Shown: positions 13,931-54,797, counted from the first letter of the stretch. The stretch: 64,000 nt of DNA from Acutalibacteraceae bacterium (GCA_036309045.1 JAXJUM010000042.1:48744-112743); one strand, 5' to 3'. Notes: generated by a model not told the origin, from the sequence alone. Numbers and translations: made by a program.

Positions 13931-14052
13931 CCACTTCCATTATACCTACAACTTAATGACTTCTTGATATGTTCTGATGAAATAGGTGCATTTGTGGGGC
14001 GTTCCAAACGGAATGCCCCACAGTCAATTTAGGAAAAGGAGAAAATGACGAT

Positions 14053-38298: not shown

Positions 38299-38316
38299 AG
38301 TATTCCCCTTAACGAA
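38291..38316. repeat. Left 26-bp inverted repeat of a recombinase-bearing invertible segment
   Basis: TTTCGTAGAGTATTCCCCTTAACGAA. Its reverse complement matches 39686-39711 with 1 mismatch. Confidence 0.8.
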
Positions 38317-38344
38317 CATAAACATAACAATTATTATGCTTAAA

Positions 38345-38373
38345 ATTATACATCTTGTTGCTAGATTTGTCAA
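38345..38373 (-). promoter_or_regulatory. Consensus sigma-70 promoter (TTGACA-17 nt-TATAAT) firing leftward out of the invertible segment
   Basis: On the minus strand TTGACA is at 38373-38368 and TATAAT at 38350-38345, with a spacer of exactly 17 nt. It lies 28 nt from the inner edge of the left repeat. Confidence 0.65.
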
Positions 38374-38507
38374 CGAGTTTTGATGAGTTTTGTATAATAA
38401 TATCAGTTTATGTTTAAATGCTTTGTACATGATGTCTGTAATTGTAATGTTTTTGTTTTATTAGCCGTCAAAATTGTCGTCACTTGATATTTAGAAAGGA
38501 TGGTAAG

Positions 38508-39623
38508 ATGTCAAGAAAAGGTGAAAATATATACAAAAGGAAAGATGGACGATGGGAAGGAAGGTTTATAAAGAGGTATGAGCCTACTGGGAAAGCCAAA
38601 TATGGGTATGTTTATGCTAGAACATATAGGGATGTAAAGAGCAAATTGGAGGTCGCAAAAACAAATCATTCACGGTTTAACGATACCAACGATGCAACAT
38701 ATTGTGAACTACTTGATAAATGGTTAGCTTGCAAAAAGCGAGAAGTGAAATATTCGTCTTATATAAGATATAAAAATACGATTGAAAATCATATTAAGCC
38801 AGAACTCGGAAATATGAAAGTAAAAAGTATTTCAGCTGAAATACTTCAAGAGTATTTAAAAGTAAAATCTGAAAATGGACGGATTGATAGGACAGGAGGT
38901 TTATCTAACAAGTCTTTATCAGACATTCTAGTAATAATAAAAGAAACACTTAAATTTGGTAATGTGTACGATACAAGCATTATCAATTTAAAAGCCACTG
39001 CTTCGCAAAAGCATAAATCAATGAGAGTATTGAACGAAAAAGAGCAAACTAACTTAACAATAACTTTATTAAACGATACTGATATATACAAAATGGGAGT
39101 TTTGATATGTCTTTATACTGGCATTAGAATAGGTGAACTCTGTGCTTTAAAATGGTCTGATATTTCTTTAGAAAACAAAGTGATTAACATTAATAAAACT
39201 CTACAAAGACTTCCTAACACCAATCCAGAAGCTAATGCAAAAACTACTCTTTTTACATCAGAACCTAAAAGTGACTCTGGAAACAGAATTATCCCAATAC
39301 CGGAATTTCTATATACTATAATTCTCCCCTTTAGGAAACAGGACGAAATGAATGTGATATCTACAGATAAAAAACCTTTGATTGAGCCAAGAACAATGCA
39401 AAACTACTTCAAAAAGTATTTAGCAGAAAGTAATATATCGGATGCTAATTTTCATTCATTAAGGCACACCTTTGCAACGAGGTGCATAGAAGTGGGATTT
39501 GATATAAAAACGCTAAGTGAAATTCTTGGTCATTCTAGTGTAAAAATCACACTAGATAGATATGTTCATTCATCTTTAAATCTAAAAAAGCTAAATATGC
39601 AAAAACTAAAATTTGCAATCTAA
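38508..39623 (+). CDS. Tyrosine recombinase (phage-integrase family) inside the invertible segment
   Basis: N-terminus MSRKGENIYKRKDGRWEGRF, plus C-terminal HSLRHTFATR and LGHSSVKITLDRYVH catalytic motifs. Confidence 0.85.
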   Translation: MSRKGENIYKRKDGRWEGRFIKRYEPTGKAKYGYVYARTYRDVKSKLEVAKTNHSRFNDTNDATYCELLDKWLACKKREVKYSSYIRYKNTIENHIKPELGNMKVKSISAEILQEYLKVKSENGRIDRTGGLSNKSLSDILVIIKETLKFGNVYDTSIINLKATASQKHKSMRVLNEKEQTNLTITLLNDTDIYKMGVLICLYTGIRIGELCALKWSDISLENKVININKTLQRLPNTNPEANAKTTLFTSEPKSDSGNRIIPIPEFLYTIILPFRKQDEMNVISTDKKPLIEPRTMQNYFKKYLAESNISDANFHSLRHTFATRCIEVGFDIKTLSEILGHSSVKITLDRYVHSSLNLKKLNMQKLKFAI

Positions 39624-39647
39624 TAGCCGTCAAAAATATAGTCAACG

Positions 39648-39688
39648 AAGCAACAACTCCTCTATAAATGCTGAGTTGTTGCTTTTTC
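39648..39688 (+). terminator. Rho-independent terminator after the recombinase gene
   Basis: 11-bp perfect stem AGCAACAACTC/GAGTTGTTGCT followed by TTTTT, abutting the right repeat. Confidence 0.7.
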
Positions 39689-39711
39689 GTCAAGGGGAAT
39701 ACTCTACGAAA
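39686..39711. repeat. Right 26-bp inverted repeat
   Basis: TTCGTCAAGGGGAATACTCTACGAAA, the partner of 38291-38316. Confidence 0.8.
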
Positions 39712-39732: not shown

Positions 39733-40074
39733 ATGGACAATACTGGCAGAAAAAATTATATGAATTATTGGAATTTTTCTAAAGAAGAAAAAAATCAACT
39801 GATTGCACACCTAACAAAAGAACTTCCCACATTAAGGGGAGCCGCTAAAGCTACCCAGGATGAAATTGCGAATATAATTGGAGTATCCCGACAAACATAC
39901 AATGCAATTGAAATGCAAAAAAGAAAAATGAGTTGGAATACATATATGTCATTGATATTGTTTTTCGATTATAATCCCAATACGCATTATACAATTAGAC
40001 AATTGGATGTTTTTCCATATCAGTTAGATGAGTGCTGGCTGTCAGGTAAACTTGAACAGTATAACGGAGAATAA
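39733..40074 (+). CDS. HTH (XRE-like) regulator, first gene of the large locus
   Basis: Product carries ATQDEIANIIGVSRQTYNAIEMQKR. Confidence 0.6.
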   Translation: MDNTGRKNYMNYWNFSKEEKNQLIAHLTKELPTLRGAAKATQDEIANIIGVSRQTYNAIEMQKRKMSWNTYMSLILFFDYNPNTHYTIRQLDVFPYQLDECWLSGKLEQYNGE

Positions 40075-40077
40075 TTT

Positions 40078-40305
40078 ATGGGAATTGAAGTTATAAAAAA
40101 AGATATACAAATTTTCCAGTCTTCTATCAAAAATTTAAGTGCTGGAATAAGTCGTGCTTCATCCTTATGGAAGGATGAAAAATATTCTGAACTTTCAGCT
40201 TCGATAAGAGAAGTTGCTAATAATTCAAAAAATGTTATTGTTACTGGTGACAGGTGTTGCTCAACGGTAGATAAATTTATCAAAATAGCAGCAGAAAAAT
40301 ATTAG
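40078..40305 (+). CDS. WXG100-like small helical protein (W-K-D-x-K-Y family)
   Basis: 75 aa with a central SLWKDEKYSEL. It is a paralogue of 42753 and of the toxin N-terminal domains. Confidence 0.6.
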   Translation: MGIEVIKKDIQIFQSSIKNLSAGISRASSLWKDEKYSELSASIREVANNSKNVIVTGDRCCSTVDKFIKIAAEKY

Positions 40306-40316
40306 GAGGTCATAGT

Positions 40317-41063
40317 GTGGTTGATGTAACAACAGAAGCATTAGAAATGGTAAAAAATGCTTTAACGACCTTTCAATCCGATATAAATGGTTTATCTATG
40401 CGTGCAACTAATCAAGCTGAAAAAATTACAGAAGAATGTAAAAATCATATAAAACAAGCAAAAACTGAAATAGCTCAAATTGAAACACAAATTTCTGCAT
40501 TAAATAAACAAATTTCTGAATTAAACGAGAAGATTGAGCAGGCGACAAGTCAATATAATACTATACTTACAAGGATTCCTCAATTAGAGAATAATATACG
40601 TTCCATAAATTCGAGAATTTCAGTACTGAACTCGCAAATAGCCTCGTTAAGATCTCAACTTGCAAATACAGAAGATGATGATGAACGTCAACAAATACAA
40701 GAACAAATCAATGTGGTAAGTCATCAGGTTGCTCAATACGAATCAGAACGAAATCGGTTAGAAATTGAATTGCAAAATTCTGAGCAACAAAAGAACGAAC
40801 TTCAACAAACTATAAATTCAGCTAAGTCAAAAAAAGCTCAATGTGAAAGTGAATTGTCAGTTCAAAAGAATAGATGTAATAGAATGAAAGACAAGCTTGA
40901 ACGTTTAAAAACAACATTTAGTAGAGTTGAATTGGATTTGAATGCTTATGTTGTTGCTACCCAAAAATTCGAAAGAAATTCAAGTGTAGAAACTCAAAAC
41001 CACAATAATTCCATTGGTAAGTGCATAGATAGTATAGAACAATATTTATCTGCTTCGATTTAG
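40317..41063 (+). CDS. Coiled-coil protein (hypothetical)
   Basis: GTG start 7 nt after AGGAGG. 248 aa with Q/N/E-rich heptad-like sequence. Confidence 0.55.
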   Translation: MVDVTTEALEMVKNALTTFQSDINGLSMRATNQAEKITEECKNHIKQAKTEIAQIETQISALNKQISELNEKIEQATSQYNTILTRIPQLENNIRSINSRISVLNSQIASLRSQLANTEDDDERQQIQEQINVVSHQVAQYESERNRLEIELQNSEQQKNELQQTINSAKSKKAQCESELSVQKNRCNRMKDKLERLKTTFSRVELDLNAYVVATQKFERNSSVETQNHNNSIGKCIDSIEQYLSASI

Positions 41064-41110: not shown

Positions 41111-42223
41111 GTGAATAAAGAAAAAAACACTTTTAGAAGCAATGATGCTTTTCCGCAATCAGTGAATAATCAGTTTTGGAACGATCTTAGAAAACAGGCT
41201 GCTAATAATTATATACCAATACATGGTCATTTTGAAATTACTCCTCGATGTAATCTGAATTGTAAGATGTGTTACGTACATTTGAATAATACTCAGATGG
41301 GTAAACTAAATGAATTACCATTTTTAAAATGGAAAGAAATCGTGGACCAAGCTATTCACATGGGAATGCTTTTTGCATCAATTTCAGGGGGAGAATGTTT
41401 AACTAGTCCATATTTTGATGAACTATATTTGTATTTGAAATCTAAAGGAATTATTGTCTTTGTTTTAACAAATGGAGTTTTGCTAGATAAAAAAATATCA
41501 TTGTTTGAAAAATATCCGCCTGCATTGATTCAGGTTTCTGTGTATGGTTATGATAAAGCTAGTTATATAGCGGTTACTGAAAAAGATGAATATGATAATG
41601 TTTCAAACTCTATCGAAAAAGCACATAAATTAGGATTGCCTATTAGTGTAGCTGTTACTGCAAGTAGATATTTACCATCTGTTTATGAAATAGTTAAAAA
41701 GTATTATGAAATCGGCATCGGTGTTACTGTAAATAGATGGATAATGCCTCCATACGAATCTACAGGTAGAAAATTTGGTGATATAAATCTATCTCCTGAT
41801 GAGCAGGTTAATATTTCAAAAGAAATACTTCAAGCAACAGAACAAGAATTAATACCTTGTCCAGTTGAACCTCTGCCAAAACCAATTATGTTTTTGAAAG
41901 ACAGAGCACCTAAAAAAGGATTACTTTGTGCTGCTGGAAGAAGTGATTTTAGTATAAATTGGAAAGGAGAAATGAGCTTATGTGTTTCTTTAAATACTCC
42001 TACAGGATACCCTTTGATAGATGGTTTTAAAAAAGCTTGGGAACAAACTGTAATAGCAAGTAAGGAATTCTTAATGCCAGTTGAGTGTTATGAGTGTAAA
42101 TACTTAAAAGTATGCAATCGCTGTCCGGCACAACATTTAATAAATAATCTACCCGGACATTGTAATCCAGCGGTGTGTGAAGAAGGCATACTGATGGTTA
42201 AAAACGGATTAGTTTCTTTATAA
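41111..42223 (+). CDS. Radical SAM enzyme with C-terminal SPASM-like Cys cluster
   Basis: CNLNCKMC (CxxxCxxC) at about 41249-41272, and a C-terminal CYECKYLKVCNRCPAQ. Confidence 0.8.
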   Translation: MNKEKNTFRSNDAFPQSVNNQFWNDLRKQAANNYIPIHGHFEITPRCNLNCKMCYVHLNNTQMGKLNELPFLKWKEIVDQAIHMGMLFASISGGECLTSPYFDELYLYLKSKGIIVFVLTNGVLLDKKISLFEKYPPALIQVSVYGYDKASYIAVTEKDEYDNVSNSIEKAHKLGLPISVAVTASRYLPSVYEIVKKYYEIGIGVTVNRWIMPPYESTGRKFGDINLSPDEQVNISKEILQATEQELIPCPVEPLPKPIMFLKDRAPKKGLLCAAGRSDFSINWKGEMSLCVSLNTPTGYPLIDGFKKAWEQTVIASKEFLMPVECYECKYLKVCNRCPAQHLINNLPGHCNPAVCEEGILMVKNGLVSL

Positions 42224-42237
42224 AGGAGGTGTAAATT

Positions 42238-42354
42238 ATGTATGAAAAGCCTGTAGCTATCAAAGTGGATTTTACTTACGAGATAGCTTTCGCAAAGAAA
42301 TGTCACTTTGCAGATTACGGAGAGTGCTCTCCAAGTGAACAGCAGTATAAATGA
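42238..42354 (+). CDS. 38-aa candidate RiPP precursor peptide
   Basis: AAAGGAGG lies 8 nt upstream. Product MYEKPVAIKVDFTYEIAFAKKCHFADYGECSPSEQQYK. Followed by a hairpin. Below the ORF-track cutoff. Confidence 0.5.
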   Translation: MYEKPVAIKVDFTYEIAFAKKCHFADYGECSPSEQQYK

Positions 42355-42371
42355 TTGCTAAGTTAAAAAAT

Positions 42372-42401
42372 GAGCGGCAAACGCTCGTTAGTTTGTCGCT
42401 C
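42372..42401 (+). terminator. Hairpin (attenuator or partial terminator) after the precursor ORF
   Basis: 11-bp stem GAGCGGCAAAC/GTTTGTCGCTC (one G-U pair), 8-nt loop and a weak T-tract. Confidence 0.45.
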
Positions 42402-42423
42402 ACATTTTTAGGAGAGTTTGAGT

Positions 42424-42702
42424 ATGTGTAAATATTTCAATAGTGAAAATTATATTTGCAGACAATTAGTAGATAATATTTTACTTTTTCCTGTAAGTCA
42501 GGAAGTGAGTGACTTTCAGGGAGGCGTAATTTTAAATAGAGTATCCCATTTTGTGTGGAAGTTATTATCTGTTCCTTGTACAAAAGATGAGATTGTGAAT
42601 GCTGTATCTCAGGAGTTTAATGCGGATATAGCTATGGTAGAAACAGATATTGAAGAACTTTTAAACAGTTTTATAGAAATGAAAATTGTTAAAGTTGAAT
42701 AA
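42424..42702 (+). CDS. PqqD-family (RRE-type) peptide chaperone
   Basis: Product carries ILNRVSHFVWKLLSVPCTKDEIVNAVSQEFNADIAMVETDIEELLNSFIEMKIV. Confidence 0.65.
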   Translation: MCKYFNSENYICRQLVDNILLFPVSQEVSDFQGGVILNRVSHFVWKLLSVPCTKDEIVNAVSQEFNADIAMVETDIEELLNSFIEMKIVKVE

Positions 42703-42752: not shown

Positions 42753-43034
42753 ATGGCAAATGGTGTATCTGTAGAGAGTGCAGCCATACAGGGCGGAATT
42801 GGATGTTGTAAAACATCAATTCATGAATTAGAGACTGCATCGAGGAATTTGCAAAGAAGCTATCAGCAAGCAGGTTCAGGAGGATGGAAAGACCAAAAGT
42901 ATGCTGCATTAGGTGGTATAGTTGAAGAATGTTGCAGTGCTTTAACAAAACCTATTTCCGAACTACAGGATTGTATGGTTAAACTGAATGATTTGCTTAA
43001 AGCAGTTGGCGATTACGAGCAAGTCAATTTATAA
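42753..43034 (+). CDS. WXG100-like small helical protein (W-K-D-x-K-Y family)
   Basis: 93 aa with a central GGWKDQKYAALGGIVEEC, ending YEQVNL just as the toxin N-domains end. Confidence 0.65.
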   Translation: MANGVSVESAAIQGGIGCCKTSIHELETASRNLQRSYQQAGSGGWKDQKYAALGGIVEECCSALTKPISELQDCMVKLNDLLKAVGDYEQVNL

Positions 43035-43049
43035 GGGAGGTAAAAAAGT

Positions 43050-43319
43050 ATGGCAGTAAAAGCTTCCCCTGAAACAATTAGGGAGATGAAAAAAGAGATT
43101 TCTAATACCATTCGAGATATTGAGAGAATCAGCAGTGGTATTAAGACAGGAATGTCAGCAACATCTAATTGGGATGATGCTAAAGCAGCTCAATTTAACA
43201 TGTTGATGCAACAGATTGCAAGGTTAACATCGACACCTATAGAAACGTTGAATGCAGCTTTACCGAAATTGGAAAAGTTAGCACAGTCATTAGATCAATA
43301 CAATAGAGTTAAATTCTAG
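43050..43319 (+). CDS. WXG100-like small helical protein (W-D-D variant)
   Basis: 89 aa with a central SNWDDAKAAQF. Confidence 0.55.
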   Translation: MAVKASPETIREMKKEISNTIRDIERISSGIKTGMSATSNWDDAKAAQFNMLMQQIARLTSTPIETLNAALPKLEKLAQSLDQYNRVKF

Positions 43320-43338: not shown

Positions 43339-44259
43339 ATGGCTAATGAACAAAAGATAACAAATGGCGTGGATGCTATTCCTACATTTACCCCGCCGTC
43401 ATCAAATGAAAATCAAACTGGAGGAAAGAGCGATGCTATTCCTACTTTCACACCTCCAACCCCTACATTTACCCCACCACAGAATGTGAAACCACAATTT
43501 AATGGACCTGCATGCTATTATCACAAGGACGAGCCTGCTGTAGCTAAATGTGCTAGATGCGGTAAATTTATTTGCCAAGATTGTTTTGATAATTATGGTG
43601 TATCAAGTGGAGATTATGCTGGTAAAGCATTGTGTTATGACTGTTGTCAGCAAATTGTAGCAGCAAATGTCGTTGATTTAAAAAAGAACAAAAATAAGAT
43701 TATGTTTCAGTTTATTATATCGATTATTGGTATGGTTTTTGGTATGATAGTTGGTATAGCAAGTGGCGGTGGCTTTGCAGGTGCGGTTATTGGTATAGCT
43801 ATAGGCGGAGTTCTGTTGAGTGCAATAAAAGTATTTTTCTCTTTGGTATGGGATGTTATTAAGATTGCCTTTTCTGGTCAATTTGGTATATTAACGATCT
43901 TCTCAATCATTTTTAACATTATTGTTTTAATAATCAAATGCTTGATAACTACAATTTCTAACACTTTCTATTACATATCTTATTTAATTAAGACGTCGGG
44001 ATTTATTGCCTCTGATGAAGCAGCTTTAAGGCAAATGGCTGACTATATGGAATATACAATGATACGTAATCAAAATAGAGGCGTTGATCTTGAAACCCTT
44101 CTTAATCAAAAGAGCGAACTCGCCGACAACTCTTATGCTCGTATGGTTCAAGAAAAAGGTGAAGAAGGTGCAGAAGCAGCACTTAGAAATTGCGTTGCAA
44201 CAATTAATGAAAATGGTGAAATCATTAGAAACTTCAATATTGCAGGTAGAGCTGCTTAA
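43339..44259 (+). CDS. Membrane protein with N-terminal Cys-rich zinc-binding (B-box-like) module
   Basis: DAIPTFTPP occurs twice. CYYHKDEPAVAKCARCGKFICQDC...CYDCC is followed by 3-4 TM helices. Confidence 0.6.
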   Translation: MANEQKITNGVDAIPTFTPPSSNENQTGGKSDAIPTFTPPTPTFTPPQNVKPQFNGPACYYHKDEPAVAKCARCGKFICQDCFDNYGVSSGDYAGKALCYDCCQQIVAANVVDLKKNKNKIMFQFIISIIGMVFGMIVGIASGGGFAGAVIGIAIGGVLLSAIKVFFSLVWDVIKIAFSGQFGILTIFSIIFNIIVLIIKCLITTISNTFYYISYLIKTSGFIASDEAALRQMADYMEYTMIRNQNRGVDLETLLNQKSELADNSYARMVQEKGEEGAEAALRNCVATINENGEIIRNFNIAGRAA

Positions 44260-44314: not shown

Positions 44315-44488
44315 ATGGATAACAATATAAATAGCGATGCAGTTGCAGCAAGAAGAAGAGCTTTGGCAGAAGCTTTGCGTACAGGTGAACCCGTTGTAGT
44401 AACCGCAAGTGGTGAAGTTGAAAAAAAGGATGATGCGGTAGACCAAGGCTTATCTGGTATTCAAGTTCCTGAGGGTAAATTAGCGTAA
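44315..44488 (+). CDS. 57-aa protein immediately upstream of the E2-like gene (candidate modifier or adaptor)
   Basis: CAGGAGGA RBS. Product MDNNINSDAVAARRRALAEALRTGEPVVVTASGEVEKKDDAVDQGLSGIQVPEGKLA. Below the ORF-track cutoff. Confidence 0.5.
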   Translation: MDNNINSDAVAARRRALAEALRTGEPVVVTASGEVEKKDDAVDQGLSGIQVPEGKLA

Positions 44489-44500
44489 GGAGGGAATACA

Positions 44501-45046
44501 ATGGCTTATTATTGGTATCAAAGCGACCCACAGCTGTACCAAATGGAAGTTGCAGCTATGAGGAAGTTTTTTCCATCATTCACCATAAATCAGCTCCAAG
44601 ATGGTTCAGGAAGATTGTACTGGAGAGGTAAAGTTCAACCTACAGGAGAAGGTGGTATGGTTTGGGATTTGATGTTGATTTACAAAAACACACATCCTAG
44701 AGCAGAAGGTTATGGTGGCTCTATCCAAATACTTCCTCTGCAACCTAGATTAAAAGATTTAGCTGACAATATAATGCCATCGATTCTGCAACAATATAAT
44801 AACAATATGGATACTTTGTATGCCAAAGGGTTGCAGTTAGGTCTTCCTCATGTATATCATGATAAGTTTGGACGTAATGAAGAATATTTTATTTGTAGTG
44901 CAGATCCTAAGTTTTTTAAAGCGGGACAAAATCAGTCTACTTCAGCAGCTTCAGCTTTGAGTTGGGCTTGCAAATGGATTATTCTTTGTGAGATGTGGTT
45001 GAATGGTGAAATCGGCGATGATGTCGCTTTAGAAGGTAACTATTAA
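44501..45046 (+). CDS. Prokaryotic E2 (UBC-fold)-like protein
   Basis: 181 aa. LPHVYHDKFGRNEEYFICSADP mirrors the HPN...C catalytic arrangement of E2s. Gene context is E2-JAB-E1. Confidence 0.55.
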   Translation: MAYYWYQSDPQLYQMEVAAMRKFFPSFTINQLQDGSGRLYWRGKVQPTGEGGMVWDLMLIYKNTHPRAEGYGGSIQILPLQPRLKDLADNIMPSILQQYNNNMDTLYAKGLQLGLPHVYHDKFGRNEEYFICSADPKFFKAGQNQSTSAASALSWACKWIILCEMWLNGEIGDDVALEGNY

Positions 45047-45047
45047 A

Positions 45048-46133
45048 ATGATTATACCTCCAAACTCTCTTGCAAAGCTAAAGGGAGTTTGGAGGTTTTG
45101 TTATAGGCTGGAGGTTTATCAAATGAGAGTAGTTTTTTCAAACAGAGCATACGCTTCTGTTTTAGCTGAAACAACTGAAAAGATTAAAACGGAAACCGGT
45201 GGTTTGTTTTTAGGAACGGTGCAGGATGATACTTGGTATATTATTGAAGCCATAGACCCCGGCCCAAAGTCAATTTTTCAAGTTGCATATTTTGAATATG
45301 ATCAAAAATATACCCAACACCTAATTAATAAAATTGCGAATCTGTATGATAGTCGACTGTCCTTAATTGGTTTATGGCATCGTCATCCCGGATCATTTGA
45401 TCAATTTTCATCAACAGATGATGGTACTAATGCTCAATATGCATCTATGAGAGAGGAAGGTGCAATTTCAGCTTTAGTAAACATTGATCCAAGTTTTAGA
45501 ATTACGATGTATCAGGTCGAAAGACCTTGCCGTTATAGAAAGATAGCATATGATGTTGGCGATAACCTTATTCCTGATAAGTTTTTGAGATTCAAAACAC
45601 CAGAAAGATATTATTCCATTATGAATAATATTCTTTATCCATCTACAACTGGAGGAGACGTGAATGACGGATACCACAAATCAGTTAGTTTGGCATCTTT
45701 TATGAAATTTATTCTGCCACAGATGAAAGATGACGAATGTACAGATGTTGAAACAAACAATTTACTTGGCGATGAATCTACACAAGAACAGCTTATTGAT
45801 GAAATTGTGGATGATTTGACATTTATGGCGGATACAATTGGTATTGAAACCGCTATGTCGCTTGATAACAATTACCTTACTGTTTATCAAGAAGCAATAG
45901 ATAAAACAACAAAGCTGTATTTTATGCTTTCCATTGTTAAACACGATATTATTCTTTCCTATGAAAATAAGTGCTACATATATCGCAAAGGATTATTTAT
46001 GGAAGCTTTCGGGAAAGCAAAAGCTGAGCAAGATAGAAAAGATAATAGTGAAAACAGAACAAAACATAGAAAAAAAGCAGGAGTCATTGATTCCGTTATT
46101 AAAATAATTAGATTTAACAGAAACGAGGAATAG
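45048..46133 (+). CDS. JAB/MPN (JAMM) metallopeptidase-domain protein
   Basis: Product carries AETTEK...GLWHRHPGSFDQFSSTD (E, HxH, S, D). An alternative start at 45123 follows GGAGG. Confidence 0.75.
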   Translation: MIIPPNSLAKLKGVWRFCYRLEVYQMRVVFSNRAYASVLAETTEKIKTETGGLFLGTVQDDTWYIIEAIDPGPKSIFQVAYFEYDQKYTQHLINKIANLYDSRLSLIGLWHRHPGSFDQFSSTDDGTNAQYASMREEGAISALVNIDPSFRITMYQVERPCRYRKIAYDVGDNLIPDKFLRFKTPERYYSIMNNILYPSTTGGDVNDGYHKSVSLASFMKFILPQMKDDECTDVETNNLLGDESTQEQLIDEIVDDLTFMADTIGIETAMSLDNNYLTVYQEAIDKTTKLYFMLSIVKHDIILSYENKCYIYRKGLFMEAFGKAKAEQDRKDNSENRTKHRKKAGVIDSVIKIIRFNRNEE

Positions 46134-46137
46134 TAAT

Positions 46138-47292
46138 ATGGGAATAAAAAGACCTAAAAATTTCTTCGGTGAGGATATACCGCTTACAGTTTTTATATCC
46201 GAAGAACAGCTCCACAATAGAGAGTGCGTAAAAGTTTTTGGTAAGTATTTTGAAGATACAGGAATTTTCAATGTGCTACCTTCTGAATTATTTGACAAAG
46301 GTAAATATCTGGGTGATGTTCTTCCTGAAGGTAGCTCACCTGCCGAAGACGGCTTCTGCGGTATAATTACCGAAGAGGGTATTGATTTTTATTGGAGTGG
46401 CGAAAAGATCGTAACCGAGTCTTATGGACTTTACCAAAGTATTTTTTCGAGAAATAAGGGGATTCTTGAAACCGATGTTATGAAGAAAAAATGTGCCGTA
46501 ATTATAGGTTGCGGTTCTGTTGGTAGCTTGGTTGCAATGGAATTAGCAAGAGCAGGCGTTGAAAAATATGTGCTGTGTGATGCGGATACTCTTGAGTACC
46601 ACAATGTGTGTCGTCATCAGTGCGGCATTGAGGATGTTGGAGATCTCAAAGTAAATGCACTTAAAAGAAAAATTCTTAATATCAATCCAAAAGCGAATGT
46701 AAAGACTTTTGGAGGTATCATTCAGAATATCCCTAAAGAAATTCTTGATGAAATGTGTACTCCATTTGAAACAATCTTTGTTGGTTGTGGAGATAATCGT
46801 GCGGCTGATGTTTACGCTAACAAAATTGCTGTTTATTTTGATGCTGCATTTATTTCGATTGGCTTTTGGGAAAGAGCTTATGCAGGAGAAATCTTCTACC
46901 ACATTCCCTATAAAAATATGCCGTGCTACCAGTGTGCATTAGGTAGCGGAGATATGTCAGGTCGTGTTGAGGCAAATCACCACGTTTATTCCAACCAAGA
47001 GAACATTGAAAATCTGAAATTCGAACCCGGCATTTCTGTTGATATAAACTTTATTACAAGCGTTGGTATTAAATTGATAATTGATATTCTTAATTCAACA
47101 AATGAAGGATATATTCCTCGCTTGCTTAATAACTTGAAACAGTACACCCTCATTTGTAATACGAGCGATCCTGCCATCGGTGGAGAAATGGTTGAAATCT
47201 TTAGCTATCCGTTACAAGTAACCACTTCACTCGTAGTTGGCTTCGGAAAAGACTGTAACGGTGAGTGCAATTATGAATTGGAAGAAAAGTAA
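46138..47292 (+). CDS. E1-like (ThiF/MoeB/HesA family) adenylating enzyme
   Basis: Product carries VIIGCGSVGSLVAMELARAGV...LCDADTLEYHNVCRHQ and a CYQC zinc motif. Confidence 0.75.
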   Translation: MGIKRPKNFFGEDIPLTVFISEEQLHNRECVKVFGKYFEDTGIFNVLPSELFDKGKYLGDVLPEGSSPAEDGFCGIITEEGIDFYWSGEKIVTESYGLYQSIFSRNKGILETDVMKKKCAVIIGCGSVGSLVAMELARAGVEKYVLCDADTLEYHNVCRHQCGIEDVGDLKVNALKRKILNINPKANVKTFGGIIQNIPKEILDEMCTPFETIFVGCGDNRAADVYANKIAVYFDAAFISIGFWERAYAGEIFYHIPYKNMPCYQCALGSGDMSGRVEANHHVYSNQENIENLKFEPGISVDINFITSVGIKLIIDILNSTNEGYIPRLLNNLKQYTLICNTSDPAIGGEMVEIFSYPLQVTTSLVVGFGKDCNGECNYELEEK

Positions 47293-47319: not shown

Positions 47320-50300
47320 ATGAAGGCTTTAGCTCAAAGCGAAATAATTGCTTTGATTACCGACTTAAATGCATTTGCTGATAGTGCTGAAGCTTTAATC
47401 AACACTACACGGATAAACTATGATAAGGACAAAAGATTGCTTCAAAACAGACACAGTAGTGTCTTATCAAATTTAGATAGTACCTACAAAGCAAACTGTT
47501 CCTCGGTACAAAGCAAATCAAAGCAGACTATTGCTGACGCAAAAAAAATACTCGCTGAAACCAACAAGCTGGACGAAAAGCTCTCAAGCGTAGACAAATA
47601 TTATGTTAAAACCAAAAAGAAAAAAGAGAAACTTTTGTCAGATACCACAAGTGCTGCTTATGATGATGCAACGGACTATTTCAAAACGCTTAGCAAAATA
47701 AAAGATAGTTTCAAGGTTCTTTATAAGAAATATTCCGAGGATATTCTTCCCGGTCTTATTAACGGCTTAAATTATTTATTCTCGAGTCAACGAAAAAAAG
47801 ACTATGAAGAATTAATTATCTTGAGAAATACAGTAGCTGCTTTTGTCAAAGAGATTGAGGAAATGCTACCACAATTAACCGAAGAGAACCTTGCAACCCT
47901 GAAAGAAGATTACTTTACTCAGCGTGGTAGTATGATTGAGCGACAGAAAAACGAAGTTGCAAATTTTGAGAGTAACCATTCTGCAACATTAGATAAAGTG
48001 GCAGATAAGATTTGCACAGAACTCGATAATGTACTTCCTGATGAGTTTGTAGATTACTTGAGTGCAATTATGGCGAACTATGCGAAAGTTGTTCACAAAG
48101 TGAATGCTTCAAATGAAATTCAAGATGAAGTGTTGAATATGTGCTATGTGGATTATCCAGTAGACTTTTTTGTGCAATCTAAGATTGTTGCATCCATCAT
48201 AAAGGAAAAATGTTCAAAGCTATTAGTGAATGGTTCAATTAGACTGCCTGTTATGATGTCTACAAGAAACGCACCTGTTTGGATGATTGCAAACGACAAC
48301 AGTAATAGTTCTATGGTACAAGCGTTTACTCACTCCATTATGTACGGGCTGCTTTCTTCTTGCCCGGTTGAAAAGTTGACCTTTACCATTGTCGATCCTG
48401 AGAACCGTGGCAACAGCATATCACCTTTCTTTGATGCGAAGAAAAAACTTCCTGAACTGTTTGGCGAAAGAATTTACATAAGTAAAGACGAGGTTGCCGC
48501 CAAAGTCAGCAAACTGAATGAAAAAATTGAGAATATTCTTCAAGATAGGCTCGGCAACCAATATGATACCATTTTTGACTATGCAAAGAGTACGCCTGAT
48601 TATAACCTCAATGTCGAGTTTATTATGCTCTATGATTTTCCAAGAGGTTTTGATGAGCGTACCCTTGCTGAACTCAGAAATGTTTTACGCAACGGAAGTA
48701 TGTGTGGAATCTACACGGTAATTTCCTATTTGCCTGAACCTGATAATACTCGTTCAAGAGAATATCAGCAGAACTTACAGTCTATCATTGACCTTTCGAC
48801 TGTAATAAATCAAAATGGTGAAAACTTTGTATTACGTGGACTTCCTCTCGTTTATTACACAATGCCTGAAAAGATTGAATTTGCTAAATTCTTTAGTAAA
48901 TATATGCTTATTTTTGAAGGTATTAAGAATCGTGGTATTGCCTTCTCCCCACTTATCAGAAAGCTCATCGAAGCAAAAGACTCTATGGAGCTTGATGCTC
49001 ACATCGAGCAGATCTGCGAGATGATGAAGAACTACGAAAAAACTTATGCACAAGTACCGGAAATCAAATCCGTGTTCCCTTCATTGGTTACATTAGGAAA
49101 TGTTCTGTATCCTGCTGATGTGTTCTCTGACAGTATCGGCTATAAGCACATTATTGATAAGTTTGGCACTGAACGCAGAGCTGGAACAGAAAACACTTCT
49201 TTTGTTGAATTGCCGCTTACCTTTGACTTGCGAAATTCTTTCAATTTGTTCTTGAATTGTCCTGAAGCAAGCAGTAAAGGAATGCTCGACTTTACACATC
49301 ACGTCATTTGGAGCTTTCTTTCCTTTATGCCTGTCACAAAGGTAAATGTATGTGTATTTGATAGTGAGCAACGAGGAAATAGTATTATTCCTTTCCTTGA
49401 TTTCCGCAAACGCTCACCTGAAACCTTTGATCAGAAGATTTATACAAGTCAGGAACAAATGTATGACCGTCTGCAAAAAATCAACGCTCAGATTGACGAG
49501 TTCATACAAGAAAAATTAGGCAATAGATATAAAGATATTCTTGACTATAACTTAAACACACCGAATAGAGCTGAACCCGTTACACTCTTGGTATTATATG
49601 ATTTCCCAAGTGGAATGGATGGAAGAAGCATTGATTTGTTGAAAAACATCTTGAGAAACGGTAATAAGTGTGGTGTATTCACTTTGATCTGCTACAATCC
49701 AAATATCACATTCTCCCGTTATGAAAGCATTGATGAGCGATTGGAACAGATTTCAAGATATTGTGCATCTATTGATTATAAACATGGGCATTATAGTCTA
49801 TTACCTTATAATTTGCAAATTAACACACCTGAGTTGCTTTCTTACAATGCGACTGATGTGTTTATCGCAGATTATATTGAAAAGAGCGAAACAATTAAGA
49901 AACAAGGACTCTCCTTTAAGGATATTATTTCTAAGGATTTGTTCTCACTTGATTCCTCTAAGTCAATGAAGATACCCGTTGGTGTTGGTGACGGAGATAG
50001 CATCGTCAACATCACTATTGGTGAAGGTTCATCCCATCACGGTCTTATTGCAGGTGCTACCGGTTCAGGTAAATCCACGCTGCTCCATACCCTTATTATG
50101 AGTAGTATGCTTCATTACAGTCCTGACCAACTCCATTTGTATCTTATGGACTTTAAGAGTGGTACTGAATTTAAGATTTACGAATCGGTTAAGCTCCCTC
50201 ACATCCAACTTCTTGCGTTGGATGCCATGCAGGAGTTCGGTGAGAGTATTCTTGAAAACCTTGTAACCGAGATGGAAGCAAGAGCCAAAGCTTTTAAAGA

Positions 50301-51711
50301 AGATGCTGGCGGTGTGTCCAAAATTAAGGATTATATTAAAGTTACCGGAAATCCCATGCCCCGCATCATGGTCATTATGGATGAATTCCAGATACTTTTT
50401 AACGATTCTACTAATAGAAAGGTTGCTAATCGTTGTGCAGAATTAGCAAAGCGTATTGTTACGGAGGGCCGTTCTTTTGGCATTCATCTTTTTATGGCAA
50501 CACAGTCCACAAGAATTATATCTGACCTGACTTTGTCTTCTGGTACAATCGAGCAAATGCGTATTCGTGTCGGCTTAAAATGCGGCGAGAATGATGCAAG
50601 ATATTTGTTCTCGGATCAAAACGACACAAAGGCATTGGCAATGATGAAGGGACCTATCGGTACTGCTGTTATGAACTTAGACTATACCGAACAGTCCAAT
50701 ATCGGATTCAGAGCTGCATACTGTGACGATGCAACACAAAAGTATTATCTTGATTTAATCAGTAAGACCTATGCAGAACAACCGTCTACCTTGCAGACCT
50801 TTGAAGGTAGCAGAACAACTAACTTGGTTGATTATTTTGCGGATGCAAATATCGGTGCAACATCTGAGCTTCCGGCACAAATTCATATGGGTACACTCAT
50901 AAAAGTTGCTCCGCCTTTCGCAATTTGTATCGACAAGAAAAAGAAACACAACCTTTTGGTTTGTGGTTCTAATGAAAGAATGGCTAATACCATTTCTAAT
51001 AACTATATGATTTCGGCCTTGCTTAATCGCAATGCAACCGTCTACTGTATTGACGGCGACAAACTTGTTGGTGATGATGGCTCGGCAGATTTCTATGATG
51101 CTCTTGGTGAGTGTAGCAGCACTCAGTTCAAAGTTGCTCAGGATCGTGCTGATATTATCAAGTTCATCAATGAGATTTATCAAAGTTATCAGACTTGGAA
51201 GAAGCAGAATAGTGATGATGTAATTTTCGTAGTAATCAAGAACCTTCAATTCTTGGATATTGTTAAGTCGATGTTCAAGGGAGATGTAATTGATGAAAGC
51301 GAGTTTATTGATGAAGTTTCTGCTGAACCTGAGTTTAACCCTGCCGATCCGTTTGCAGCAGTAAACAATATGTTTGCAAACAGAGGTAGTGACGATAATA
51401 TGTCGGTTGGTGAAAAACTCATAAAGATGATTGAAGATGGTTCGGGATTTGGTATTCACTTTGTGGTTACATCACTTGAATATCAATCTGTAAGAGAATG
51501 TATGTACTACGGTGAAAATATCCTCACAAAATTCCCTGAACGTATCATCTTTTCTCTTGGATCTAACGATGCTGATAATCTTATTGAAAACGTTTCGGTT
51601 GCAGGCTTGAGAGATAATACGGTTTACTTCACGGATGGAGTTAAAAACACATTCCAAATGAAACCGTATATTACACCTTCTGCAAATGAATTGAAGAAAC
51701 TGTTTGATTAA
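47320..51711 (+). CDS. FtsK/SpoIIIE-family (EssC/EccC-like) multi-domain ATPase without recognisable TM or FHA regions
   Basis: There is one canonical module (GATGSGKST at about 50053, VIMDEFQ, GIHLFMATQS). Two upstream modules and one downstream module have degenerate P-loops. The N-terminus is coiled-coil. Confidence 0.8.
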   Translation: MKALAQSEIIALITDLNAFADSAEALINTTRINYDKDKRLLQNRHSSVLSNLDSTYKANCSSVQSKSKQTIADAKKILAETNKLDEKLSSVDKYYVKTKKKKEKLLSDTTSAAYDDATDYFKTLSKIKDSFKVLYKKYSEDILPGLINGLNYLFSSQRKKDYEELIILRNTVAAFVKEIEEMLPQLTEENLATLKEDYFTQRGSMIERQKNEVANFESNHSATLDKVADKICTELDNVLPDEFVDYLSAIMANYAKVVHKVNASNEIQDEVLNMCYVDYPVDFFVQSKIVASIIKEKCSKLLVNGSIRLPVMMSTRNAPVWMIANDNSNSSMVQAFTHSIMYGLLSSCPVEKLTFTIVDPENRGNSISPFFDAKKKLPELFGERIYISKDEVAAKVSKLNEKIENILQDRLGNQYDTIFDYAKSTPDYNLNVEFIMLYDFPRGFDERTLAELRNVLRNGSMCGIYTVISYLPEPDNTRSREYQQNLQSIIDLSTVINQNGENFVLRGLPLVYYTMPEKIEFAKFFSKYMLIFEGIKNRGIAFSPLIRKLIEAKDSMELDAHIEQICEMMKNYEKTYAQVPEIKSVFPSLVTLGNVLYPADVFSDSIGYKHIIDKFGTERRAGTENTSFVELPLTFDLRNSFNLFLNCPEASSKGMLDFTHHVIWSFLSFMPVTKVNVCVFDSEQRGNSIIPFLDFRKRSPETFDQKIYTSQEQMYDRLQKINAQIDEFIQEKLGNRYKDILDYNLNTPNRAEPVTLLVLYDFPSGMDGRSIDLLKNILRNGNKCGVFTLICYNPNITFSRYESIDERLEQISRYCASIDYKHGHYSLLPYNLQINTPELLSYNATDVFIADYIEKSETIKKQGLSFKDIISKDLFSLDSSKSMKIPVGVGDGDSIVNITIGEGSSHHGLIAGATGSGKSTLLHTLIMSSMLHYSPDQLHLYLMDFKSGTEFKIYESVKLPHIQLLALDAMQEFGESILENLVTEMEARAKAFKEDAGGVSKIKDYIKVTGNPMPRIMVIMDEFQILFNDSTNRKVANRCAELAKRIVTEGRSFGIHLFMATQSTRIISDLTLSSGTIEQMRIRVGLKCGENDARYLFSDQNDTKALAMMKGPIGTAVMNLDYTEQSNIGFRAAYCDDATQKYYLDLISKTYAEQPSTLQTFEGSRTTNLVDYFADANIGATSELPAQIHMGTLIKVAPPFAICIDKKKKHNLLVCGSNERMANTISNNYMISALLNRNATVYCIDGDKLVGDDGSADFYDALGECSSTQFKVAQDRADIIKFINEIYQSYQTWKKQNSDDVIFVVIKNLQFLDIVKSMFKGDVIDESEFIDEVSAEPEFNPADPFAAVNNMFANRGSDDNMSVGEKLIKMIEDGSGFGIHFVVTSLEYQSVRECMYYGENILTKFPERIIFSLGSNDADNLIENVSVAGLRDNTVYFTDGVKNTFQMKPYITPSANELKKLFD

Positions 51712-51788: not shown

Positions 51789-52580
51789 ATGATTTGTAAG
51801 AAGTGCGGAAAAGAGATAAAAGATACCGCTAAATTTTGCGGTTATTGTGGTTCAGTAAACGAACCTACTATTGGCGTACAGACGCCGGAAATTTCTGAAA
51901 CGGTCAACTATACACCGTCTTGGATGAAACAAGAGGTGAAAACAACAACGAGTACAATTTCTGCTAAGCAGAATGTAGATATTAAGACTGAAATAAGTAA
52001 AAATGCGGGATTGGTTGCGTTGCCGTGCATTTATTTGGTTTGGCAAATTATACGAATATTCTTAAATAGGAATATGATAAGTTATGGCAATGACTCCTAT
52101 ATGACCTATATGTATATCACAATTATTGTAGGGTGTATTCTTTATGGTGCTATAAGCGGCGGATTAGTAATTGCTATAAATAAGTGTTCAAAAAATTTCA
52201 AATGGGTATATTTAATTCCCTATATGATTGTTTGTGCTTACTTTTTGCTTACGAGTATAAACTATTTTGAAAGTGTACTATATTCGATTTTTGAGTTTTT
52301 AGAAATAATCGTTTCTATGGTAGTGATTATTTCTTTGCAAAACACACAATTAGGTAAAGAAAAATCAGCGAAGTCAACTATTACGATTGCCGCTATTTCT
52401 ACCGGCGCCGGAGTGCTTGTGTTCCGTTTCCTTTATTATTTACTTATTAGCATTCTTTTCGGTGGATTTGTAAGTTTTACTCTTTGGAATGTCATCACAA
52501 GTGCAGCTTCCATACTTGGTGCTGTGATTACTTCGGCAGTAATCGTTAATTCCGCTTATATGAAAAACTCACAGAGGTAG
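51789..52580 (+). CDS. Zinc-ribbon + polytopic membrane protein
   Basis: N-terminal CKKCG...CGYCG followed by about 6 TM helices. Confidence 0.6.
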   Translation: MICKKCGKEIKDTAKFCGYCGSVNEPTIGVQTPEISETVNYTPSWMKQEVKTTTSTISAKQNVDIKTEISKNAGLVALPCIYLVWQIIRIFLNRNMISYGNDSYMTYMYITIIVGCILYGAISGGLVIAINKCSKNFKWVYLIPYMIVCAYFLLTSINYFESVLYSIFEFLEIIVSMVVIISLQNTQLGKEKSAKSTITIAAISTGAGVLVFRFLYYLLISILFGGFVSFTLWNVITSAASILGAVITSAVIVNSAYMKNSQR

Positions 52581-52585
52581 ACGTT

Positions 52586-53512
52586 ATGGAATTAGTATGT
52601 TTATTATTAACCGTTTTCGGTTTAATTATTTGTTTTGGCGGTATTTATATTAGAAAATTCTGTTCTTCCATTATGGGTTTAGTGTGGGGAGCTTTCCTTT
52701 CTATTATTCTTATTGTTTTGACTACGGAATCAATATGGCAAATTGATAGCGAGGAATCGTTAGTATGGATTGTAATTGGAGCAATTACACTTGCTATCTT
52801 TTCTGCAATATATGAGAAAGCGTGTGCTTTTCTGAATAGCTTTATACCGACATTTTTTATTGTATGTGTATTATTGCTATTCAACATTCTTTCAAATGAA
52901 GATCTTGAGATATCAGCAGTGGTTATCATTGCTCTAATCGTAGCTTTTATCTCAGGCTTTATTAGTTATAAGATTTACGACATTGCTTTTATGCTCGAAA
53001 CGGCTTTTACAGGAGCGTTTATAGCTTCATTGGGTATATATGGTCTTACAGAAGGAGCAAACGATGTTGGTGATGTGGTTTTCGGCGCAGTAATGGATGA
53101 CGAAGTTATAGGTTATATATTGCTTGGTACTGTTGTTTTAGGCATTATCGGTTTTTGCGTTCAATGGGGCAGATTTAAGACTATCAAGGAAGAAAAAAAC
53201 TTGGAAGATAAAAAAGATACTTCCACTACAGATGGTTGGCAATGCCAATGCGGTAAGTTAAATTCTTTCGAGCATCAATTCTGTGAAGAATGTGGTAAGC
53301 AATTTATTGAACCTGATTTCTCCCAAAAATCTTGGAACTGCAAGTGCGGAGCTTCCAATGCAGACGAGATGTTATTCTGCTCTGAGTGTGGAGCAAATCG
53401 CCTGCAGCAAGAATATTCTAAATGGATATGTTCAACTTGTGGAACAGAAAATGAACACGATATGCTCTATTGCTCTGAGTGTGGCAAGGTTTCCGGAGGT
53501 AAAAAGCAATGA
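52586..53512 (+). CDS. Polytopic membrane protein with three C-terminal RanBP2-type zinc-ribbon repeats
   Basis: About 6-7 TM helices, followed by WQCQCGKLNSFEHQFCEECG, WNCKCGASNADEMLFCSECG and WICSTCGTENEHDMLYCSECG. Confidence 0.65.
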   Translation: MELVCLLLTVFGLIICFGGIYIRKFCSSIMGLVWGAFLSIILIVLTTESIWQIDSEESLVWIVIGAITLAIFSAIYEKACAFLNSFIPTFFIVCVLLLFNILSNEDLEISAVVIIALIVAFISGFISYKIYDIAFMLETAFTGAFIASLGIYGLTEGANDVGDVVFGAVMDDEVIGYILLGTVVLGIIGFCVQWGRFKTIKEEKNLEDKKDTSTTDGWQCQCGKLNSFEHQFCEECGKQFIEPDFSQKSWNCKCGASNADEMLFCSECGANRLQQEYSKWICSTCGTENEHDMLYCSECGKVSGGKKQ

Positions 53513-53787: not shown

Positions 53788-53814
53788 TTGATTTTTTGCA
53801 AAGGAGGGATTTGC

Positions 53815-54789: not shown

Positions 54790-54797
54790 GTGCAGTG

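Follow-up and report, generated by a model that had tools for sequence, protein, structure and literature searches.

Ubiquitin-like conjugation in bacteria has so far been tied to antiphage immunity, i.e., to the cyclic-oligonucleotide-based antiphage signaling system (CBASS), Bil and Bub, where the tags are beta-grasp ubiquitin-like proteins (Ubls) or a whole enzyme. Cap2 of CBASS adenylates a disordered tail rather than a beta-grasp domain and still works in vitro when its E1 cysteine is mutated, while Cap3 cuts exactly after the last residue (10.1101/2022.03.31.486616). BilA is a beta-grasp Ubl ending in glycine and BilD exhibits an IAD-AAD-CYS architecture, while Bub Ubl-E2 fusions are cleaved by a JAB-E1 protein whose E1 part is devoid of a catalytic cysteine (PMC11601596). 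Type VII secretion systems of the b type (T7SSb) depend on YukD, a non-covalent partner of the EssC homologue, for their assembly and for killing (PMC12637312). Zhang et al. (2012) furthermore noted ‘mobile versions of T7SS’ on mobile DNA in diverse phyla, which combine solo WXG proteins with a distinct YueA-like ATPase of which only one of several FtsK domains is active (PMC3482391). Here, a system related to these is described from a 64,000-nucleotide stretch of DNA of an Acutalibacteraceae bacterium (GCA_036309045.1, JAXJUM010000042.1:48744-112743), which is referred to as the window. It concerns a cassette of four co-directional genes on the + strand, encoding a 57-residue protein (s57), an E2-like conjugating enzyme, a JAB protease and an E1-like enzyme, which is part of a T7SS-like module on a conjugative element.

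The preferred reading, to which a probability of about 0.6 is assigned, is that the cassette represents a ubiquitin-type cascade with a very small modifier in which no ubiquitin fold is detectable, that it is integrated into a mobile T7SS-like module for toxin export, carried by a conjugative element, and that it controls the exporter. Judged by its sequences, this system is closest to CBASS Cap2/Cap3, Bil and Bub, and it is a member of none of these.

The conjugation cassette and its candidate modifier

The cassette comprises the following genes and features, all on the + strand:

44315-44488, + strand: s57, the candidate modifier, 57 aa, with a strong ribosome-binding site (RBS)
Parts of s57 (+ strand), as read from its sequence: an N-terminal basic helix (AARRRALAEAL), a short hairpin (VVVTxSGEV) and an acidic linker
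44468-44485, + strand: tail of s57, IQVPEGKLA-COOH, invariant
44501-45046, + strand: E2-like conjugating enzyme, 181 aa
45123-46133, + strand: JAB/JAMM metalloprotease, 336 aa from its probable start (the longest open reading frame (ORF), 45048-46133, is 361 aa)
45192 and 45378-45419, + strand: JAB catalytic sites, i.e., the Glu49 codon and the H111-x-H113...S121...D124 block, respectively (longest-ORF numbering)
46138-47292, + strand: ThiF/MoeB-type E1 adenylating enzyme, 384 aa
46507-46524 and 46792-46794, + strand: E1 Rossmann GxGxxG and Asp219, respectively, downstream of an N-terminal domain of ~110 aa
46924-46935 and 47254-47268, + strand: E1 zinc cysteines C263/C266 and C373/C377, respectively, from the alignment

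An earlier reading of the window, made from the sequence alone (the sequence-only reading), had placed all four ORFs where they were found, and the motifs it quoted (HVYH...FICSADP, HRHPGSFDQFSSTD, GCGSVG, NVCRHQ and CYQC) are all present in the translated ORFs. The gaps it gave (12, 1 and 4 nt within the cassette and 27 nt to the following ATPase gene) hold for the longest ORFs, but the second of these is probably wrong. A Shine-Dalgarno sequence is present upstream of s57, E2, E1 and the ATPase gene, and since the ATG at 45048 has none, that at 45123 is preceded by GGAGG (RBS 45107-45111), and homologous JAB genes encode 333-348 aa and begin ~76 nt past the E2 gene, the JAB start is probably 45123 and not 45048; the ‘1-nt gap’ between E2 and JAB is an artefact of choosing the longest ORF. 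The s57 and E2 ORFs of the window share a common reading frame. A locus scan restricted to one genome per species yielded 51 loci, and the arrangement of the cassette, kept in more than 50 genome loci and in hundreds of metagenomic proteins, is far beyond chance.

The evidence on the candidate modifier lies mainly in its C-terminus and in the forms in which it occurs. A collection of 5.8 billion proteins contains 315 s57 homologues, none of which carries a Pfam domain and one of which, from an Acutalibacteraceae metagenome-assembled genome, is identical. Among the best 120 of these 315, the protein ends exactly after the alanine of GKLA in 113, while others have three additional residues (e.g., REA, RES or RGA); genome loci show further tails of three to four extra residues (GEA, KEG, RED, KED, RRG and TTEV). 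The end ...[IV]PxGKLA is invariant in Clostridia, Acidobacteriota, Actinobacteria, Planctomycetes and Ignavibacteria. Translational s57-E2 fusions (P0072, P0093 and P0098) read ...KLA-GRN-YYWYQ across the junction, and a second, mostly environmental clade (391 matches, with PF26395 in all but one of the 120 listed) typically has such fusions, joined at ...PxGKLA/(A)S-FYWY. Tandem modifier units precede the E2 in several proteins, two of them in P0245, P0246, P0247 and P0254 and three in P0244, and the units of divergent poly-modifier arrays end in ...GILG, ...NFAA or ...TIVSG.

These forms (free, extended, E2-fused and in head-to-tail arrays, with one end motif) match ubiquitin-type precursors that need a dedicated protease. 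The proposal of the sequence-only reading that the 57-aa protein is an unconventional modifier is therefore supported by the invariant ...PxGKLA end, the C-terminal extensions, the E2 fusions and the tandem arrays. Its further suggestion, that the modifier may need processing by JAB, fits the precursor-like relatives with their tails, fusions and arrays but not the window itself: because s57 of the window already ends at Ala57, processing would be needed in relatives only. A motif search for P.GKLA, as a possible additional JAB site, found none elsewhere in the window.

Relatives outside the window (P0244-P0247, P0254, P0380, P0381, P0417, P0419 and P0498) include poly-modifier-E2 precursors with two, three or more tandem units; P0419 has a TIR-like N-terminal domain fused to the E2, and P0498 is an E2-JAB fusion.

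The possibility that s57 is a hidden beta-grasp protein was rejected, with hhalign probabilities of 1.8% for ubiquitin and 0.1% for ThiS and a negative hmmsearch against PDB chains. In an AlphaFold2 (AF2) model of a natural s57-E2 fusion, the s57 part consists of one helix and a tiny hairpin with a low-confidence or disordered tail, and the model contains no confident docking of s57 onto the E2. Modifier units of a distant clade carry an added N-terminal strand-like motif, IPxGxh, because of which s57 may still represent a much-reduced beta-grasp. Taken on its sequence and that of its relatives, s57 is the best candidate modifier, and there is a good chance, better than that given to the preferred reading as a whole, that the four proteins of the cassette constitute a conjugation cascade whose tag is s57.

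The sequence-only identification of the three enzymes is borne out by family matches (Pfam, PADLOC and NCBIfam) and by invariant catalytic residues, invariance being judged on alignments of 45-49 sequences that include relatives at only 34-38% E2 identity. The E2 returned no match in the local Pfam copy, and its profile returned nothing significant from PDB sequences; it matches the CBASS-type E2 models of PADLOC (9.3e-9), and PF26395 (‘E2-CBASS’) is found in its homologues. With only 298 matches at E<=1e-3 among 1.84 billion representative proteins, this E2 family is a small one. His117 (44849-44851) and Cys132 (44894-44896) are invariant in 49 sequences, and the latter codon is the one that had been singled out as that of the E2 cysteine. 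The AF2 model of the E2 (pLDDT 71.5, pTM 0.70) exhibits an alpha-beta4-alpha topology, in the order helix, four-stranded sheet, His-loop, Cys132 and further helices. In a Foldseek search of this model against the PDB, ubiquitin-conjugating (UBC) or ubiquitin E2 variant (UEV) proteins make up most of the listed top 50, but no match is individually significant (none at E<0.1), and this list adds weak structural support to the hidden Markov model (HMM) evidence.

The JAB protein matches Pfam Prok-JAB above the family cut-off (5.8e-7), CBASS JAB models as its best PADLOC hits (down to 3.6e-12) and NCBIfam 6A-MBL cap2_3 (3.3e-15), while its score against NCBIfam Cap3 is 22 bits versus a cut-off of 200; both JAB and E1 match the NCBIfam model for the E2-E1-JAB fusion protein of the antiphage ‘6A-MBL’ system. 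The full JAMM motif (Glu49, His111, His113, Ser121 and Asp124 in longest-ORF numbering) is invariant in 45 sequences and is followed by an extra C-terminal domain of ~190 aa. The E1 contains a single ThiF stretch (residues 116-321; Pfam ThiF 7.2e-25), and its best PADLOC hits are Cap2-type E1-E2 fusions (4.2e-25). Its GxGxxG loop, Asp148, Arg159, Gln161, Lys171, Asp219 and four zinc cysteines are invariant, and every adenylation residue is present. An alignment census identified no conserved cysteine between residues 218 and 339 of the E1 except the zinc ligands, i.e., no crossover-loop cysteine, and Ser274 and Tyr284 are invariant where ThiF, MoeB, UBA5 and Cap2 carry the catalytic cysteine. 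One feature of BilABCD operons, an E2 with a catalytic cysteine together with an active JAB peptidase, is indicated here by the invariant residues of both proteins.

Among PDB sequences, the best matches of the E1 are MccB (1.8e-12), Cap2 (6.5e-10) and UBA5 (1.8e-7). The alignment to MccB begins at residue 99 in both proteins, and therefore each has an N-terminal domain of ~100 aa. This resemblance to its best solved relative by sequence would suit a pathway for a ribosomally synthesized and post-translationally modified peptide (RiPP) of the microcin C kind, or a sulfur-carrier pathway, in which the E1 would adenylate a peptide C-terminus for modification or thiocarboxylation, the JAB would trim it and the ATPase would export the product. 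JAB, E1 and a small protein with a C-terminal extension are indeed known from sulfur-carrier systems (PMC1779556), and a radical SAM/SPASM-PqqD pair lies inside the module of the window. This pair is, however, an insertion that is absent from the other ~50 Clostridial-clade loci mapped, a weak radical SAM match of 25% identity in L023 aside; neither pathway needs an E2, whose cysteine and histidine are invariant in all loci examined; the terminal alanine is neither the asparagine of MccB chemistry nor the Gly-Gly found in sulfur carriers; genes for a rhodanese or for sulfur transfer are absent from the module; and tandem 60-aa units are unlike RiPP precursors. Such a pathway is very improbable.

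The T7SS-like module and its conservation

The cassette is flanked by the following genes and features:

39733-40074, + strand: helix-turn-helix (HTH) protein, first gene of the module, 113 aa, Pfam HTH_19 8.9e-5, kept in many loci
40078-40305, + strand: p75, third WXG-like small protein, conserved in the ten-gene module
40317-41063, + strand: cc248, coiled-coil protein by its coiled-coil matches, conserved in the ten-gene module
42753-43034, + strand: w93, WXG100-like helical hairpin, conserved in ~45 loci
43050-43319, + strand: w89, WXG100-like helical hairpin, Pfam WXG100 3.5e-5 (below cut-off), ~45 loci
43339-44259, + strand: ZnTM306, membrane protein with a zinc module at 43513-43641 and hydrophobic residues 119-213 (hydropathy)
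44203-44229, + strand: INENGEIIR motif in the C-terminal tail of ZnTM306
47320-51711, + strand: EssC/FtsK-like ATPase, 1463 aa, Pfam FtsK_SpoIIIE 1.2e-26
51789-52580 and 52586-53512, + strand: zinc-ribbon membrane proteins (Pfam), variable cargo
53509-53787, + strand: WXG-like protein, 92 aa, variable cargo
53788-54789, + strand: toxin with a WXG100 domain and a Peptidase_C39_2-like C-domain (Pfam), variable cargo
54783-55271, + strand: putative immunity protein, 162 aa, variable cargo
55304-56356, + strand: second WXG100-headed protein, variable cargo

The cassette had been described as embedded between secretion-type genes, and this holds, as it is part of a conserved T7SS-like module. Approximately 45 Clostridial loci (67-90% E2 identity) keep the ten-gene order p75-cc248-w93-w89-ZnTM-s57-E2-JAB-E1-ATPase, and their hosts are Clostridia from the gut, the rumen and termites, among them Faecalibacterium prausnitzii ATCC 27768; the cargo downstream of the ATPase varies among loci whose synteny is otherwise kept. 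All loci of the distant clade retain the complete four-gene cassette, and in three settings the neighboring genes recur in rearranged order: Vicinamibacterales (Acidobacteriota) and related high-GC contigs (L057, L059 and L097) have the order cassette-ATPase-WXG-WXG-cc, a human-gut lineage (L072-L076 and L103) has the order WXG-ATPase-WXG-cc/toxin-cassette, and in L088 the genes for an FtsK-like ATPase, two WXG100 proteins and a coiled-coil protein adjoin the cassette on the opposite strand. Because this linkage survives changes in gene order and spans phyla, the neighborhood argues for a functional link between the cassette and the FtsK/WXG100 genes.

The cassette elsewhere occurs without FtsK/WXG100 genes, beside those for TPR-CHAT, HSP70 or HSP70-LRR proteins and dynamin-like GTPases, or beside those for RCC1, MORN or DUF4190 proteins, and it would appear from these neighborhoods to be a portable conjugation unit recruited by different systems. 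Megablast searches of the core against phage and plasmid collections returned no match and a scan of IMG/VR only two loci, and the cassette is therefore not typically phage-borne.

One of the loci without FtsK, L061, encodes an 89-aa zf-UBP protein (13874-14143, - strand) ~2 kb from the cassette, a proximity that may be coincidental; in eukaryotes, the zf-UBP domain binds free ubiquitin C-termini.

The ATPase consists of a helical N-region and four FtsK-like domains, of which only the third, a P-loop domain, is active, while the first two (residues 300-600 and 600-880) and the C-domain are degenerate. The first two are paralogous (33% identical, repeat E=1.4e-48) and devoid of a Walker A motif, while the active domain, with its Walker A at 50053-50076, is highly conserved in the conservation map. 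Against the NCBIfam EssC model the protein scores 135.8 bits versus a cut-off of 778.4, and it returned no FHA match in Pfam and no transmembrane (TM) or hydrophobic segment in the hydropathy analysis. In Pfam and NCBIfam scans, no module protein matched EsaA, EssA, EssB/YukC or EsaB/YukD.

Both w93 and w89 contain a central W-x-D and a C-terminal Y-x-x-V-x-[LF], and the GWKDxKY motif of w93 recurs in the N-domain of the toxin at 53788. WXG100 scores lie at or just below the Pfam cut-off of 27.3 bits (w89 24.4, tox333 26.3 and p350 27.3). The cc248 homologues in other loci are longer (463 aa in L007-L009 and 594 aa in L017; family range 402-594 aa), and a cc248-like homologue in L103 (7154-8362) ends in ADPrib_exo_Tox, an ADP-ribosyltransferase toxin domain; cc248 itself may therefore be a trafficking head that lacks a toxin.

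The WXG-like proteins and the toxin N-domain (42753-43319 and 53509-54100) also have in common the C-terminal Y-x-x-V-x-[LF] (DYEQVNL, QYNRVKF, AYLKVEL and EYEEVNL) and a central W-K-D-x-K-Y turn. These are candidate export signals, and the lysines are candidate acceptor sites.

ZnTM306, encoded directly ahead of s57, combines a zinc module with a peptide motif that accompanies the cassette across clades. Each of its zinc ligands (C59, H62, C71, C74, C79, C82, C98 and C101) is kept by 90% or more of 48 sequences, all eight positions being invariant in 19 B-box-region sequences of A4, and their spacing (C-x2-H-x8-C-x2-C-x4-C-x2-C-x15-C-x2-C) is B-box-like. The module scores just under the cut-off for Pfam zf-B_box (8.4e-5), and a PDB profile search returned weak B-box matches mixed with noise; it may be an E3-like (B-box/RING-like) adaptor, an idea that serves only as a lead. 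The motif [IV]N[ED]xGE[IF][IV]R occupies the extreme C-terminus of Clostridial ZnTM306 proteins (...INENGEIIRxF(x)AA), whereas in the distant clade it lies in the first ~10 residues of small membrane proteins encoded directly 3' of E1, followed by a Pro/Ser-rich linker and TM helices. In relaxed form, this NExGEIIR motif was found in most cassette loci with sufficient flank (including L052, L055-L059, L072-L076, L088, L093, L096 and L097) and in none of L060, L061 and L085. The NExGEIIR protein is thus a recurrent fifth partner of the cassette, and the motif would act as a docking peptide, tethered so that the soluble enzymes, or the modifier, are recruited to the membrane protein.

NExGEIIR loosely resembles the s57 hairpin TxSGEVEK, as would fit competition for one binding site, and Clostridial ZnTM306 homologues nearly always end in Ala-Ala just past the conserved motif. 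The E1 and E2 might thus activate the C-terminus of a larger protein of the locus, e.g., the membrane protein (...IIRxF(x)AA) or a WXG100 protein, with s57 as a regulator, pseudo-substrate or inhibitor, and in CBASS the enzyme partner itself is indeed the substrate. In the distant clade, however, the motif stands at the N-terminus of the membrane protein, and activation of a C-terminus is consequently not general; furthermore, a pseudo-substrate role would leave the invariant end of s57, the extensions of three to four residues, the E2 fusions and the tandem arrays with the same motif unexplained. A larger substrate is accordingly judged improbable.

Genes for two relaxases, a T4 coupling protein, a VirB4-like ATPase, a sortase, a CHAP hydrolase and a serine recombinase mark the window as a conjugative element. 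The relaxases, T4 coupling protein, VirB4, sortase and CHAP are located within 1-37 kb, and a 2109-aa protein (1328-7657) combines MutS domain I with a SNF2/ResIII helicase region, a combination typical of the large polyvalent proteins of conjugative elements. Immediately upstream of the module lies a segment (38291-39711) in which a tyrosine recombinase gene (38484-39623) is enclosed by 26-nt inverted repeats (38291-38316 and 39686-39711, 96% complementary). Near-identical contigs differ solely by the exact inversion of this segment (L001/L002, 1449 bp; L007/L008, 1468 bp), which resembles a phase-variable, self-encoded invertible switch acting on the module.

The insertion mentioned above lies between cc248 and w93 and comprises a radical SAM/SPASM gene (41111-42223), a 38-aa cysteine-containing ORF (42238-42354; ...CHFADYGEC...), a strong hairpin terminator (42371-42402) and a gene for a PqqD-like protein (42418-42702), and it looks like a RiPP cassette that has landed inside the module. 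This hairpin aside, terminator-like sites gave no usable operon boundary, and a promoter scan found promoter-like sites no more common than in shuffled sequence.

The family matches and some of the neighborhoods would also suit a defense or conflict system like type II CBASS or Bil, in which the cassette would tag or prime an immune sensor, effector or invader protein, and the FtsK-like ATPase and WXG100 proteins would represent a sensor and a membrane-damaging effector rather than an exporter. The enzymes match best the CBASS-type E2, E1-E2 and JAB models, plus the 6A-MBL fusion protein of antiphage defense; conflict-type proteins (TPR-CHAT, HSP70-LRR and dynamin GTPases) neighbor the cassette in other phyla, and a TIR-like-E2 fusion exists; the ATPase is devoid of a TM segment; and the locus is mobile-element cargo under a phase-variable switch. 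Downstream of the Clostridial module, however, lie polymorphic toxins headed by WXG100 domains, along with putative immunity genes, and the cc248 homologue with an ADP-ribosyltransferase toxin domain is a signature of T7SS-type interbacterial antagonism. Furthermore, Pfam and PADLOC scans found no CD-NTase, nuclease or other known immune effector in the conserved module, and the cassette is nearly absent from viral contigs and was not seen in defense islands among the loci examined. A defense system is thus considered unlikely, and the Bil-like antiphage role that the sequence-only reading had put forward for testing finds no specific support at this locus.

Proposed mechanism and significance

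Under the preferred reading of tag-controlled export, JAB would cut past the alanine of GKLA wherever the modifier is extended, fused to the E2 or in tandem, as in the relatives, while s57 of the window would be ready-made. E1 would adenylate the Ala57 carboxylate of s57 and, because this E1 has no loop cysteine, Cys132 of the E2 is proposed to attack the acyl-adenylate directly, yielding an E2~s57 thioester. From there, s57 would be passed to an amine on a target within the module, most likely the EssC-like ATPase or ZnTM306, whose NExGEIIR tail would tether the enzymes at the membrane, and JAB would reverse the mark. The outcome would be a reversible covalent control of the assembly or activity of an exporter that secretes the WXG-headed toxins, i.e., a covalent counterpart to the non-covalent role of YukD in T7SSb assembly. 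The processing, adenylation and thioester steps are inferred from sequence patterns and precedent. The exporter-control role is favored by analogy, given the synteny with the ATPase, the WXG-headed toxins downstream and the role of YukD in T7SSb.

Several points weigh against this reading. NExGEIIR contains no conserved lysine and hence offers no obvious acceptor. The E2 fold is read from HMM matches and from a medium-confidence model with individually non-significant Foldseek matches, and the best PDB match of the E1, MccB, is a peptide-modifying rather than a protein-conjugating enzyme. Because the canonical T7SSb membrane components and YukD were undetected and the ATPase has no TM segment, export itself is only inferred. 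Finally, the cassette is also found without FtsK/WXG100 genes, and therefore its basic function is not specific to secretion.

A broader proposal, which is offered tentatively and at somewhat less than even odds, is that s57 represents a hitherto unrecognized class of ultra-short modifiers (~45-70 aa with a P-x-G-K-L-A end and without a detectable ubiquitin fold), produced in free, extended, E2-fused or polyubiquitin-like tandem form, that would be attached covalently by a Cys-less E1 and a CBASS-type E2 to parts or substrates of mobile T7SS-like machines, with the NExGEIIR membrane peptide as a docking or E3-like element.

A bacterial secretion machine may thus be controlled by covalent protein tagging, in which case reversible tagging of the ubiquitin type would, for the first time, be the switch of a bacterial secretion or toxin-delivery system. 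A minimal modifier defined almost wholly by its tail would help to show what a set of E1, E2 and deubiquitinase-like protease needs of its substrate, and the genetic linkage of conjugation enzymes to a type VII-like export ATPase makes the puzzle of ubiquitin-like parts in T7SSs directly testable. The module is widespread as cargo of conjugative elements in Clostridia from human, animal and termite guts, where it probably shapes interbacterial competition, with an invertible on/off switch. Moreover, this enzyme set is compact and orthogonal to ubiquitin and, with its E2, 57-aa tag and specific protease site, could serve as a tool for protein ligation.

Comparison with described systems

Type II CBASS provides the best-matching families for all three enzymes, and it resembles the present system in its ThiF-like E1 without a separate Cys domain; its Cap2 substrate is read via a flexible C-terminal tail with no detectable beta-grasp and its JAB cuts exactly after the last residue, as is proposed here. 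In contrast, Cap2 is a single E2-linker-E1 protein with a crossover-loop cysteine, whereas here the E2 and E1 are encoded by separate genes with JAB between them and no loop cysteine. Pfam, PADLOC and NCBIfam scans of the module proteins, and the related loci examined, revealed no CD-NTase or nucleotide-activated effector; a dedicated tiny modifier takes the place of the cyclase, and the context is one of FtsK and WXG100 genes.

The gene content and order, i.e., small protein, E2, JAB and E1 with no obvious E3, are those of BilABCD, to which the cassette had been likened. The likeness in order holds but membership does not, as no beta-grasp Ubl is detectable and the E1 is not of the IAD-AAD-CYS type: the modifier here is 57 aa long and ends in alanine, and the E1 is a single 384-aa adenylation domain protein without a Cys domain. 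Type I Bub (6E) shares with the relatives of the cassette modifier-E2 fusions that need a JAB cut, and an E1 without a catalytic cysteine. Bub, however, has one to three beta-grasp domains, a JAB-E1 fusion, a serine in the E2 (forming an oxyester) and a DUF6527 protease, whereas here the E2 has an invariant cysteine, JAB and E1 are separate, the modifier-E2 fusion occurs in relatives only, and a Pfam scan of the module proteins gave no DUF6527 match.

YukD/EsaB of T7SSb and the ubiquitin-like domain of EccD in T7SSa likewise tie an element of the ubiquitin system to an EssC/EccC-type FtsK ATPase and WXG100 substrates, but these are non-covalent beta-grasp proteins without E1 or E2, while here no beta-grasp was detected and a full set of conjugation and deconjugation enzymes is present. 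The EssC of T7SSb combines two FHA domains with TM helices and with three or four ATPase domains, and the present ATPase has neither FHA domains nor TM helices. As in the mobile T7SS of Zhang et al. (2012), a single FtsK domain is active here; the present ATPase differs in having four domains with the third one active, and the retrieved text of that note makes no mention of E1, E2, JAB or a small modifier (PMC3482391). Full-text literature searches found no paper linking E1, E2 and JAB with WXG100 or T7SS-like loci.

More distant comparisons concern single features. The MccB precursor is short, ends in asparagine and is handled without an E2, unlike the alanine end and the E2 of all loci examined here. 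The head-to-tail modifier units of the relatives, each ending in the conjugation motif, recall polyubiquitin, but s57 has no relation to ubiquitin in sequence or fold by hhalign. Pup, which is small and largely disordered like the modeled s57, is ligated by PafA via a side-chain carboxylate and not by E1 and E2. The system is therefore of a known kind, bacterial ubiquitin-type conjugation, and what is new are its modifier class, its recurrent motif-bearing membrane partner and its coupling to a T7SS-like module.

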